Positions 28,271-32,000 of a DNA stretch of 32,000 nucleotides are shown one piece after another. The position numbers and the translations under genes are program-made. The stretch is from NCBI GenBank assembly GCA_963675515.1, contig OY776328.1, positions 750,001 to 782,000 of the forward strand, written 5' to 3'. The notes under the pieces are model-generated. The model saw only the letters and a program-made list of their open reading frames with translations, did not search any database and was not told the origin of the DNA. The stretch's first letter is position 1, and the number at the start of each line of letters is the position of its first letter. This stretch comes from Coprobacillaceae bacterium (GTDB lineage: Bacteria > Bacillota_I > Bacilli_A > Erysipelotrichales > Coprobacillaceae).

Positions 28271-28299
28271 TTGACTTGTGAAAGATAATGTTGTAAGAT
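28271..28299 (+). promoter_or_regulatory. rRNA promoter (16S-5S unit) with A/T-rich UP-like region
   Basis: TTGACT (28271-28276), 17 nt, TAAGAT (28294-28299). ATTTTTGAAAGAAATATCAAATTT lies upstream. Confidence 0.6.
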
Positions 28300-28301
28300 A
28301 A

Positions 28302-28340
28302 TCAAGTCGACTCAAGACGAGTCACAGTTCATTGAAAACT
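28302..28340 (+). promoter_or_regulatory. rRNA leader: boxB-like hairpin plus boxA-like antitermination element
   Basis: TCAAGTCGACTCAAGACGAGTCAC contains the hairpin GACTC/GAGTC and is followed by TCATTGAAAACT. The TTGAAAACTAAACA stretch resembles Firmicute rrn leaders. The element is repeated at 30437-30476. Confidence 0.55.
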
Positions 28341-28422
28341 AAACAGAATTAAAAACACAACGTCAATTATTCAATAAGAATAAAGATTTAAAAAGAGCTA
28401 AACAAACATTATTGTTTACATA

Positions 28423-29952
28423 AACAATGGAGAGTTTGATCCTGGCTCAGGATGAACGCTGGCGGCGTGCCTAATACATGCAAGTCGAACGCTTCGATTT
28501 ATCGAAGAGTGGCGAACGGGTGAGTAATACATAAGTAACCTGCCCTTAACAGGGGGATAACTACTAGAAATGGTAGCTAAGACCGCATAGGTGGATTGAT
28601 CGCATGATTGATTCATTAAAAGACCTTTCAAGGTCTGGATAAGGATGGACTTATGTCGCATTAGCTAGTTGGTAAGGTAACGGCTTACCAAGGCGACGAT
28701 GCGTAGCCGGCCTGAGAGGGTGAACGGCCACATTGGGACTGAGACACGGCCCAAACTCCTACGGGAGGCAGCAGTAGGGAATTTTCGGCAATGGGGGAAA
28801 CCCTGACCGAGCAACGCCGCGTGAAGGAAGAAGGAATTCGTTTCGTAAACTTCTGTTATAAAGGAAGAAAGATGACATCAGGAAATGGTTGTCAAGTGAC
28901 GGTACTTTATGAGAAAGCCACGGCTAACTACGTGCCAGCAGCCGCGGTAATACGTAGGTGGCAAGCGTTATCCGGAATTATTGGGCGTAAAGAGGGAGCA
29001 GGCGGTAACAAAGGTCTGTGGTGAAAGCCTGAAGCTTAACTTCAGTAAGCCATAGAAACCAGGTAACTAGAGTGCAAGAGAGGATCGTGGAATTCCATGT
29101 GTAGCGGTGAAATGCGTAGATATATGGAGGAACACCAGTGGCGAAGGCGACGATCTGGCTTGTAACTGACGCTGAGTCCCGAAAGCGTGGGGAGCAAATA
29201 GGATTAGATACCCTAGTAGTCCACGCCGTAAACGATGAGTACTAAGTGTTGGGGGTCGAACCTCAGTGCTGCAGTTAACGCAATAAGTACTCCGCCTGAG
29301 TAGTACGTTCGCAAGAATGAAACTCAAAGGAATTGACGGGGGCCCGCACAAGCGGTGGAGCATGTGGTTTAATTCGAAGCAACGCGAAGAACCTTACCAG
29401 GTCTTGACATATGTCTAAAGGCTCCAGAGATGGAGAGATAGTTATAGATATACAGGTGGTGCATGGTTGTCGTCAGCTCGTGTCGTGAGATGTTGGGTTA
29501 AGTCCCGCAACGAGCGCAACCCTTGTCGTTAGTTACCATCATTAAGTTGGGGACTCTAACGAGACTGCCAGTGATAAGCTGGAGGAAGGCGGGGATGACG
29601 TCAAATCATCATGCCCCTTATGACCTGGGCTACACACGTGCTACAATGGATAGTGCAAAGGGAAGCGAGACCGCGAGGTGGAGCAAAACCCATAAAACTA
29701 TTCTCAGTTCGGATTGTAGTCTGCAACTCGACTACATGAAGTTGGAATCGCTAGTAATCGTGAATCAGCATGTCACGGTGAATACGTTCTCGGGCCTTGT
29801 ACACACCGCCCGTCACACCATGAGAGTTGATAACACCCGAAGCCGGTGGCCTAACCGCAAGGAAGGAGCTGTCTAAGGTGGGATTGATGATTAGGGTGAA
29901 GTCGTAACAAGGTATCCCTACGGGAACGTGGGGATGGATCACCTCCTTTCTA
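28423..29952 (+). rRNA. rrs: 16S ribosomal RNA
   Basis: AGAGTTTGATCCTGGCTCAG near the 5' end, GTGCCAGCAGCCGCGGTAA, and the 3' end GGATCACCTCCTTTCTA. The ends are estimated by analogy to B. subtilis. Confidence 0.95.
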
Positions 29953-30039
29953 AGGAGAACCGTTCAACTTGTCGGTTGGACAAAAGCAAAAGTTGTGAAG
30001 AAATTCTGTTTAGTTTTGAGTGAACTGTAAACTCAACGA

Positions 30040-30145
30040 TCTGGTAACGATGGCATGATGGACACACCTGTTCCCATCCCGAACACAGAAGTTAAGCATC
30101 ATAACGGCGACGATAGTGCAATGTGCGACAATAGCAAGCTGCCAG
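30040..30145 (+). rRNA. rrf: 5S ribosomal RNA, located between the 16S and the 23S
   Basis: CCTGTTCCCATCCCGAACACAGAAGTTAAGC is the universal loop B to helix III and loop C region. The terminal helix is CTGGTAAC/GCTGCCAG. It is about 106 nt, on the short side, as in Mollicutes-related lineages. Confidence 0.85.
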
Positions 30146-30153
30146 TTTGAAAT

Positions 30154-30176
30154 CAAGGACGTAAGTCCTTTTTTTT
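30154..30176 (+). terminator. intrinsic terminator directly after the 5S
   Basis: AAGGAC-GTAA-GTCCTT followed by a run of T (to 30176). Confidence 0.7.
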
Positions 30177-30405
30177 TGTTTTCCAGAACCACACAAAGGA
30201 AAAGAACCGGCTCACGCCGGTTCAAGAAAGAGAGTTATTAGTTTGTTTTCATTTAAATAAGAGAGTTATTATATTTAGGAGAGAGATGTAAGGTTGGTGT
30301 CCTTACACTTATAATATAATCCTCCAAGATGAACTAATTATTAACCGGGTGTGTCAAATTACGGAATAGGCACAAATTTTTGGGTCGATATTTTTGAAAA
30401 AACAG

Positions 30406-30434
30406 TTGACTAGGAATTGATGTTGTTGTATTAT
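30406..30434 (+). promoter_or_regulatory. second rRNA promoter (23S unit)
   Basis: TTGACT (30406-30411), 17 nt, TATTAT (30429-30434). ATATTTTTGAAAAAA lies upstream. Confidence 0.6.
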
Positions 30435-30436
30435 AT

Positions 30437-30476
30437 TCAAGTCGACTCAAGACGAGTCACGAGATCATTGAAAACT
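30437..30476 (+). promoter_or_regulatory. duplicated rRNA leader (boxB-like hairpin + boxA-like element)
   Basis: 24 of 24 nt are identical to 28302-28325. It is followed by the same 12-nt TCATTGAAAACT. Confidence 0.55.
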
Positions 30477-30632
30477 GGATAATAATCGAAAGATAGAAAA
30501 GAGATCGAGGAAATGAAAATTTCCAAAATTATAACCAGATAGATTTAAAACAATTTATGTGGTCTTTCTAGAAAAAGTCGAAAAAAAACTAAGAAAAAAC
30601 TAAAACTAAAAAAGTTTAATCAAACACCAATA

Positions 30633-32000
30633 GGTAAAGTAAAAAAGAGCGTATGGTGGATGCCTAGGCACAAAGAGGCGATGAAGGACGCAGCGAACGG
30701 CGAAACGCGACGGGGAGCAGTAAGCATGCAATGATCCGTTGATGTCCGAATGGGGGAACCCAGTCAGTGTAACAGCTGATTATGCATAAGTGAATACATA
30801 GCTTATGCAGGCGATACGCAGGGAACTGAAACATCTAAGTACCTGCAGGAGAAGAAAATAAACAATGATTTCCTAAGTAGTGGCGAGCGAACGGGAAAGA
30901 GCCCAAACCCGACATAGTCGGGGGTTGTAGGGCTGCTGATAACGACACGAAATCATTATAGAAGAATCAGCTGGGAAGCTGAGCCAAAGAGAGTGAAAGC
31001 CTCGTATTTGAAATAGTGACGAAGTCAAAGCAGTACCTGAGTACGGCGGGACACGAGAAATCCTGTCGGAATCTGCCAGGACCATCTGGTAAGGCTAAAT
31101 ACTCCTTTGTGACCGATAGTGAACCAGTACCGTGAGGGAAAGGTGAAAAGAACCCCGGGAGGGGAGTGAAAGAGATCCTGAAACCATATGCTTACAACAA
31201 GTTAGAGCCCGTTAATGGGTGATAGCGTGCCTTTTGTAGAATGAACCGGCGAGTTACGATATGCAGCAAGGTTAAGTAGGATATACGGAGCCGAAGCGAA
31301 AGCGAGTCTGAATAGGGCGAGAGTTGTATGTCGTAGACCCGAAACCGAGTGAGCTAGCCATGACCAGGTTGAAGTTGGGGTAAAACCCGATGGAGGACCG
31401 AACCGACCCCCGTTGAAACGTTGGCGGATGAGTTGTGGCTAGGGGTGAAATTCCAATCGAACTCGGAGATAGCTGGTTCTCCCCGAAATAGCTTTAGGGC
31501 TAGCGTCAAGGTAGAGTAATATGAAGGTAGAGCACTGAATGTATGATGGCCTCATCTCGAGGTACTGAATATAATCAAACTCCGAATGTCATAAATATAT
31601 ACTTGGCAGTCAGACAGTGGGTGATAAGGTCCATTGTCAAGAGGGAAACAGCCCAGACCATCAGCTAAGGTCCCAAAATATACACTAAGTGGAAAAGGAT
31701 GTGGAGATGTCCAGACAACTAGGAGGTTGGCTCAGAAGCAGCCACCCTTTAAAGAGTGCGTAACAGCTCACTAGTCGAATGACTCTGCGCCGAAAATTTA
31801 CCGGGGCTAAGTGTAATACCGAAGCTATGGATTAGAAATAATGGTAGGGGAGCGTTCTATATGCGAAGAAGTCAGATCGAGAGGACTGGTGGAGCGTATA
31901 GAAGAGAGAATGCCGGTGTGAGTAGCGAAACGGTGGTGAGAATCCACCGCACCGAAAACCCAAGGTTTCCAGAGGAAGGTTCGTCCGCTCTGGGTAAGTC
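30633..32000 (+). rRNA. rrl: 23S ribosomal RNA, 5' part (continues beyond the window)
   Basis: GGTAAAGTAAAAAAGAGCGTATGGTGGATGCCTAGGCAC...GATGAAGGACG...CCGAATGGGGGAACCC matches the 23S domain I start. Confidence 0.95.

Follow-up and report, generated by a model that had tools for sequence, protein, structure and literature searches.

A 16S-5S-23S ribosomal RNA locus with a predicted terminator and a second promoter inside its spacer in a Coprobacillaceae bacterium

The balance among the ribosomal RNAs (rRNAs) of bacteria is explained in textbooks by the co-transcription of 16S, 23S and 5S. How could such a balance be kept if a terminator and a second promoter stand inside the operon and a 5S gene follows the 16S gene directly? 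This question is raised by an rRNA locus of a Coprobacillaceae bacterium, situated at the end of a 32,000-nt stretch of DNA (GenBank assembly GCA_963675515.1, contig OY776328.1, positions 750,001 to 782,000 of the forward strand), the whole of which is called the window in the following. An earlier note on this DNA, written without database searches, had described the gene order 16S-5S-23S, a terminator after the 5S and a second promoter with a duplicated leader ahead of the 23S. Our analysis confirmed that the odd locus and its structural reading are real. From the sequence, we suggest that the locus probably holds two adjacent functional transcription units on one strand, with termination predicted at about 30179 and initiation at about 30441.

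The rRNA genes and the predicted signals around them

The rRNA genes were called with Rfam covariance models at the gathering threshold over the whole 32,000-nt window. These calls and the signals predicted around them are given below in the order of their positions. L122 and L220 are related loci from metagenomes, which are described in the next section, and ITS stands for internal transcribed spacer.

28271-28299, + strand: P1, the rrn promoter of the 16S unit, TTGACT-17-TAAGAT (consensus scan), conserved in four relatives
28302-28325, + strand: leader 24-mer TCAAGTCGACTCAAGACGAGTCAC with a small hairpin, GACTC/GAGTC (repeat search and folding); putative +1 G at 28306
28324-28350, + strand: 5' arm of the 16S processing stem, holding the boxA-like TCATTGAAAACT; 27-nt inverted repeat with 93% complementarity
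28424-29949, + strand: 16S rRNA gene (RF00177, 1573.1 bits, model positions 1-1533, the full model)
30002-30028, + strand: 3' arm of the 16S processing stem, pairing with 28324-28350; 26/27 (96%) identical in L122
30040-30147, + strand: 5S rRNA gene, intact (RF00001, 68.8 bits against a gathering score of 38, model positions 1-120)
30155-30179, + strand: intrinsic-terminator-like hairpin and T9, 8 nt 3' of the 5S, with AAGGAC-GTAA-GTCCTT at 30155-30170 (consensus scan)
30204-30223, no strand assigned: strong 8-bp GC hairpin GAACCGGC-TCAC-GCCGGTTC, terminator-like on the - strand only (consensus scan)
30406-30434, + strand: P2, the second rrn promoter, TTGACT-17-TATTAT, 10/12, the best in the region; paralogue of P1
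30437-30460, + strand: second leader 24-mer and hairpin, identical to 28302-28325 (repeat search and pattern scan); putative +1 G at 30441
30461-30632, + strand: ITS-type 23S leader, made of the boxA arm GAGATCATTGAAAACTGGATAATA and the spacer to the 23S; the boxA arm is identical to that of the canonical ITS of L220, with patchy homology beyond
30633-32000, + strand: 23S rRNA gene, the 5' 1368 nt, running past the window end (RF02541, 1258.6 bits, model positions 1-1385)

All three rRNA genes lie on the + strand within one locus, and the Rfam calls gave the order that the earlier note had read from the letters. Its positions were also close, since every feature fell within 3 nt of ours; the 16S-5S spacer measures 90 nt, for which about 87 nt had been claimed, and the gap between 16S and 23S is 683 nt (29950-30632). 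The 5S, which the note had placed at 30040-30145, matched RF00001 over the full model and above the gathering score. Its score is close to those of the canonical 5S copies of relatives (71-82 bits), and it is 93% identical to the 5S found 3' of the 23S in L220. A 5S pseudogene was considered and rejected, because the score of the gene resembles those of canonical copies in relatives, and the gene is conserved to 98% in L122, compared to 50-80% in its flanks. No tRNA was found in the 16S-23S interval by ARAGORN and a permissive Rfam scan, nor was any other RNA family. A cryptic tRNA, small RNA or riboswitch in the 5S-23S spacer was likewise rejected, as only sub-threshold matches at chance level were obtained there (rli22, E = 0.24; PreQ1, E = 0.21). 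For an antisense open reading frame that spans the 5S and the terminator, the search for homologues gave one match, on a canonical 23S-5S contig of a relative (L249).

The structure 3' of the 5S has the form of an intrinsic terminator, i.e. a GC-containing hairpin with a U-tract directly behind it, where a gene ends. It is built from a 6-bp stem with three GC pairs and a GTAA tetraloop, and the region folds at -9 kcal/mol (z = -2.7). In L122 the stem is intact, the loop reads GAAA instead of GTAA and the T-run is kept, giving -13.8 kcal/mol. The terminators 3' of the 5S in canonical relatives range from -6 to -12 kcal/mol, and that of the window falls inside this range. The terminator that had been supposed is therefore as strong as those ending the operons of relatives, with a stem conserved in L122. 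In the canonical relatives L220 (4571-4581), L176, L141 and L163, a run of T7-T8 stands directly 3' of the 5S, ahead of a separate terminator hairpin, and the terminal 5S helix itself might act as a terminator there. Such a run is absent directly after the 5S of the window.

A second hairpin, at 30204-30223, folds at -15.2 and -15.8 kcal/mol (z about -4.5) and is 90% conserved in L122. A T-run is missing on the + strand; the - strand has a T-rich tail, yet no converging gene is found there. Perhaps a bidirectional terminator at the end of an operon left this hairpin behind, or the hairpin blocks antisense transcription. The 5S-23S spacer also holds AAGAGAGTTATTA twice (30221-30240 and 30252-30271, 31 nt apart), the first copy being exact in L122, as well as a conserved GTAAGG/CCTTAC hairpin at 30286-30308, preceded by GGAGAGAG-ATG-TAA, which resembles a Shine-Dalgarno sequence with a start and a stop codon. 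Both the repeat and the hairpin with its start-stop could be due to chance.

The second promoter proved to be a true paralogue of the first. Positions 28270-28325 and 30405-30460 form a 56-nt repeat of 82% identity in the output of the repeat finder, and this repeat includes the exact 24-mer, of which all 24 of the 24 nt are identical, as had been noticed before. P2 is nearer to the consensus than P1 and has a homologue in the promoter that serves the downstream tandem operon of L220. The -10 hexamer of P1, TAAGAT, recurs in that L220 promoter and in the rrn promoters of Hungatella. The G residues at 28306 and 30441 are the likely transcription starts. The boxA-like pair AGTTCATTGAAAACT / AGATCATTGAAAACT is repeated as well. 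It is established that boxA is a Nus-factor site in rrn leaders; in this locus the boxA-like TCATTGAAAACT, read as (A)TCATTGAAAACT where it follows the 24-mer, was found at 28329-28340 and 30465-30476, that is, both in the leader and before the 23S. A degenerate pattern composed of the leader hairpin and boxA matched exactly these two sites, with 0.00 expected in shuffled sequences, and a scan of metagenomes with this pattern returned no matches. The hairpin itself reads GACTC/GAGTC in the window, GGCTC/GAGCC after P1 in L122, L123 and L125, and CGGC/GCCG in L220. Judged from these sequences, the differences among relatives are compensatory changes.

An independent assembly and the loci of relatives

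L122, a metagenome contig of 65 kb from ENA in the style of a long-read assembly, is syntenic with the window and 94.6% identical to it over 28243-30468. Rfam found the 16S and then the 5S on this contig, and the succession of 16S, 5S, terminator, spacer, P2 and leader is colinear with the window at the same chromosomal site. Because L122 comes from a different organism and a different assembly and has the same layout, a mis-join across 29950-30468 is excluded. The check for a mis-join that the earlier note had proposed for 29950-30640 is thus answered over 29950-30468. Identities between the window and L122 in the aligned segments were as follows.

5S: 106/108 (98%)
P2 -35 hexamer: 6/6
P2 -10 hexamer: 5/6
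P2 17-nt spacer: 8/17
Leader: 33/34 (97%)
Remaining spacers: 50-70%

A predicted promoter of the sigma-A type stands upstream of the 23S and is conserved in a relative, which kept 11 of the 12 hexamer positions, compared to 8 of 17 in the spacer between the hexamers. The overall pattern of identity looks like a functional footprint.

We also searched contigs from metagenomes for the signature that the group has at its 16S 3' end, CCCTACGGGAACGTGGGGATGGATCACCTCCTT, and obtained at least 120 loci. Among the matches listed, 113 loci were evaluable; none of them had a 5S in the 16S-23S interval, and the median length of the ITS was 223 nt. The 3' flank of the 23S was visible in 48 loci, and in 46 of these a 5S was located 3' of the 23S. 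Two candidates for loci without a 5S after the 23S, L247 and L208, were rejected, as their 23S matches are truncated or internally deleted and look like poor assemblies. The 23S match of L247 (2981-3535) reaches no further than model position 2044, and about 500 nt beyond it there is a CRISPR repeat (RF01316); this contig is probably chimeric.

Among the matches listed, L220 comes closest, its 16S being 95.1% identical over 1152 nt. Its layout is canonical and tandem: 16S, a 289-nt ITS, 23S, 5S, 730 nt and the next 16S. In L136, L163 and L218, 23S-5S is followed by 16S, and in L153 a 5S lies about 690 nt upstream of the 16S. The position of a 5S upstream of a 16S in L220 and at least four related loci is consistent with tandem operons, which would be a source of a junction made of 5S, terminator and promoter. 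Thus, the comparison with related rrn loci that the earlier note had called for found these relatives canonical; the canonical order is the norm in the group, and the 16S-5S-23S layout is the derived one.

The surroundings of the locus were compared further. A regulator of the MocR type, 2.4 kb upstream of the locus, has an 81% homologue on L122, and its best named relative (83%) is in a metagenome-assembled genome labelled "Erysipelotrichaceae bacterium". On a 2.6-Mb contig of lower similarity (L121, 70% protein identity) the flanking genes are kept, and no rrn locus is found beside the glycyl-radical gene (L121 2530-2940, compared with 28062-28423 of the window). Since L121 has no rRNA locus at this site, the rrn locus here is not ancestral to the wider group. 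Near the equivalent site L121 carries an extra sugar ABC transporter and an IS66 element; its neighbouring ABC ATPase, used as a query, returned widely shared homologues only.

A proposed origin and the readings to be weighed

How might such a locus have arisen? The two arms of the 16S processing stem belong to a full duplex of leader and 3' flank that folds at -48.4 kcal/mol. This stem closes 11 nt ahead of the 5S, so that the 5S lies just outside the stem and just before the terminator. The second leader, up to 30460, matches the P1 leader of the window and the promoter of the downstream operon in L220, and from GAGATCATTGAAAACTGGATAATA on it matches the ITS of L220. The 23S leader is a chimera, in which an rrn promoter with its leader hairpin has been joined to the boxA arm of an ITS. 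In L220 the ITS boxA arm pairs with CTATTATCTAGTTTTGAGTGATTCTC, just 3' of the 23S, and forms the 23S processing stem.

Between the 3' arm of the 16S stem and the ITS boxA arm, the window contains a 5S, a terminator, intergenic DNA, a promoter and a leader hairpin, which are the same parts as those found between two tandem operons. The chimeric leader thus suggests that an inter-operon junction was captured into the 16S-23S spacer. One route to this would be a pair of deletions in a tandem pair of operons, by which the upstream operon lost its 23S and the downstream operon its 16S. Alternatively, a single gene conversion would have copied the junction into an ITS. The 3' arms of the 16S and the 23S share TAGTTTTGAGTGA, and the leader and the ITS boxA share TCATTGAAAACT; these short direct repeats in the stem arms could mediate either route. 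By both routes, a second 5S would have been present after the 23S when the arrangement arose.

If there are two units, transcription of the first would start at P1, pass the leader with its hairpin and boxA, continue across the 16S and the 5S and end at the terminator. An enzyme of the RNase III type that cuts the 16S stem would set free a 5S precursor whose end lies at the terminator, a job which in a canonical operon is done by cleavage of the 23S stem. The second unit would run from P2 through the chimeric leader, whose first 24 nt are those found after P1 and are followed by boxA, into the 23S. Because the 5' arm of the 23S stem (the ITS boxA arm) is intact, maturation of the 23S could run as usual. 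Firmicute rrn promoters are known to sense the initiating GTP. As P1 and P2 share the -35 hexamer, the start region and boxA, both should follow the same growth-rate signals, and matched regulation of the two would keep the output of 16S and 23S balanced without co-transcription.

Several points weigh against the reading of two units and against its proposed origin. The terminator hairpin is short, with its 6 bp and -9 kcal/mol, and rrn elongation complexes modified at boxA might read through it in part. The number of promoter-like consensus matches in the region (8, against 5.2 +/- 2.6 in shuffles) was not above chance, nor was that of terminator-like matches (4, against 2.3 +/- 1.6), so the case rests on position, paralogy and conservation. 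The contig L122 ends, at its position 1 (30468 of the window), inside the second leader, and the join of P2 to the 23S rests on the window assembly and on homology to the ITS. Lastly, there was no detectable homology between the intergenic DNA from 5S to P2 in the window and the inter-operon DNA of L220; the model of the origin therefore rests on architecture and breakpoints only.

The argument on stoichiometry depends on whether a second 5S is present after the 23S. We give about even chances to the explanation that the spacer 5S is an extra copy, and that a 5S and a terminator still follow the 23S, which is the situation of the Paenibacillus loci L012 and L065. In that case 5S and 23S would be coupled as before, and the locus would make a surplus of 5S. 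This explanation is compatible with two transcription units and alters the argument on stoichiometry only. Both routes of origin leave the downstream part, 23S-5S-terminator, intact. Nearly all related canonical loci have a trailing 5S (the 46 of 48 mentioned above). Paenibacillus loci with a 5S both after the 16S and after the 23S do exist, and L065 keeps a terminator and a degenerate copy of promoter and leader. In opposition to this, the Lachnospiraceae and L019, L077, L082 and L111 show no 5S after the 23S, which means that the trailing copy also gets lost. It is conceivable, although we consider it doubtful, that the 5S of the window has moved for good into the small-subunit unit and that a 5S is missing from the 23S unit, either here or at every rrn locus. 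If this were true, the two large-subunit RNAs would be made from different promoters and the 5S would be dosed with the 16S. This would be an example from nature in which 5S and 23S are uncoupled and twin promoters alone balance them.

A different explanation is that the locus is still one operon, in which antiterminated polymerase from P1 reads through the hairpin and 16S, 5S and 23S are co-transcribed, with P2 as an auxiliary promoter or a decaying relic. The small size of the hairpin and the boxA in the P1 leader are in its favour. In addition, the 16S-5S-23S loci of Lachnospiraceae and of most Paenibacillaceae lack a second promoter, with tRNAs in most of their spacers, which indicates that co-transcription through a 5S in the ITS works. 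However, canonical relatives end their operons with hairpins of equal strength, and the T9 and the stem are conserved in L122. It would also be unexpected for a dead relic that the P2 hexamers are conserved while the spacer between them diverged. P2 is also nearer to the consensus than P1. We therefore regard this explanation as unlikely. An assembly artefact, by which a collapsed or mis-joined rRNA repeat put the 5S and the promoter between 16S and 23S, is highly improbable: rRNA repeats are common sites of misassembly and the join at 30468-30633 has no second assembly, but L122, from another organism and sample at 5% divergence, carries the same colinear layout at the same site, and beyond the second leader ordinary ITS sequence runs into the 23S.

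Under the preferred reading of two units, the locus resembles a natural experiment, in which an operon has been cut in two while its genes are still adjacent, and each half is driven by one of two twin promoters whose start regions are identical. Together with the canonical tandem relatives, the chimeric leader offers a concrete and testable route to the 16S-5S-23S order. There is also a practical consequence, in that full-operon amplicon methods (16S-ITS-23S) will meet in this lineage a 683-nt "ITS" that holds a 5S gene.

Two further features were seen elsewhere in the window. A T-box leader at 16619-16848 (+ strand, 115 bits) lies upstream of a shikimate/aromatic amino acid operon, whose genes at 16908-22903 encode DAHP synthase, DHQ synthase, EPSP synthase, chorismate synthase, chorismate mutase/prephenate dehydratase and shikimate kinase. 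The specifier of the T-box looks like UUC (Phe) in the Rfam alignment, in a putative register, and the same T-box is present in L122 at 13651-13880. In addition, a 153-nt unit is tandemly duplicated at 4975-5127 and 5239-5391 with 97% identity, and each copy contains a tRNA-Leu(CAA), at 5037-5121 and 5301-5385, with equal Rfam scores.

Comparison with known arrangements

The 16S-5S-23S order has been published as a family trait of the Lachnospiraceae (Kelly et al. 2010, PLoS One, PMC2914790; also used in PMC4230839). We scanned genomes for a 5S motif located 85-145 nt beyond the 16S end and obtained at least 120 loci. The matches listed were nearly all from Lachnospiraceae or other Clostridia, together with Paenibacillus, Brevibacillus, Aneurinibacillus and Cohnella, and none among them was from the Erysipelotrichia; in the literature we found no report of this order in that class either. 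Rfam was run on 18 of the scanned loci, and the leader was compared with the 5S-23S spacer in 17. In 16 of these 17 the two regions shared boxA alone or nothing clearly homologous, and no intact promoter was present, the exception being L065; the boxA core, (C)TTGAAAAC(T), was the sole shared element in most of the other loci compared.

In the Lachnospiraceae, Rfam gave 16S, 5S, usually one or more tRNAs, 23S and further tRNAs, and no second 5S. Their operons resemble the window in that the genes have the same order on one strand, the 5S begins 60-107 nt after the 16S and a boxA precedes the 23S. They differ in that the 5S is usually followed directly by tRNA genes, and leader and spacer share only boxA, over 12-30 nt. 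No intact promoter is found in these operons and the hairpin has at most 5 bp, whereas the window has a terminator and a full copy of promoter and leader, and has no tRNA. The continuous spacer of the Lachnospiraceae type, which holds a 5S, usually tRNAs and no pair of terminator and promoter, is therefore not what the window contains. Lachnospiraceae also belong to another class, with a 16S identity to the window of 76-81%.

The loci of the Paenibacillaceae consist of 16S, 5S, sometimes tRNAs, and 23S, with or without a trailing 5S, the latter case being represented by L019, L077, L082 and L111. To our knowledge, Paenibacillaceae loci with a 5S in the spacer have not been published. Paenibacillus L012 has the succession 16S, 5S, terminator, tRNA, tRNA, 23S, 5S. 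That of Paenibacillus sp. KN14-4R (L065, 3963-4620 and 7659-7775) is 16S, 5S, terminator, two tRNAs, a degenerate promoter-hairpin-boxA copy, the 23S and a further 5S. L065 is thus similar to the window in the terminator-like hairpin after 16S-5S and in the recognisable copy of an rrn promoter, leader hairpin and boxA before the 23S. The differences are the two tRNA genes between the terminator and the promoter copy, the degeneration of this copy (about 8/12, with a TG extension) and the second 5S after the 23S. This parallel suggests that an inter-operon junction was captured more than once, and junction capture may also be the source of the 16S-5S-23S orders of Lachnospiraceae and Paenibacillaceae. 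We compared the flanks of the two 5S copies in L065 and in L012 as a test for recombination, and the similarity was weak.

Classical cases of split rRNA genes are Thermus thermophilus, Helicobacter, Rickettsia and Borrelia, in which the 5S usually stays with the 23S. The window is similar to such split or unlinked genes in that its 16S and 23S are predicted to be transcribed from separate promoters, and differs in that a 5S travels with the 16S. The distances also differ, since rRNA genes are defined as unlinked when the nearest 16S and 23S are more than 1500 bp apart (Brewer et al. 2020, bioRxiv 10.1101/705046). By this definition the gap of the window would score as linked. Surveys based on distance with the 1500-bp cut-off would count such a locus as an ordinary operon, and splits of this kind may therefore be under-counted.

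With its canonical tandem relatives (L220, L136, L163 and L218) the window has in common the promoter type TTGACT-17-TAAGAT, the leader hairpin and boxA, the stem arms, the 5S (93%) and the type of terminator. The difference is one of place: in these relatives the junction of 5S, terminator and promoter lies between two operons, whereas in the window it lies inside the 16S-23S spacer. The layout of the window is a distinct and apparently young form of a known order, and this order had not been noted previously in the lineage. The order itself is already published, and the features that distinguish the window from other loci of this order are the terminator, the intact promoter and a spacer free of tRNAs.

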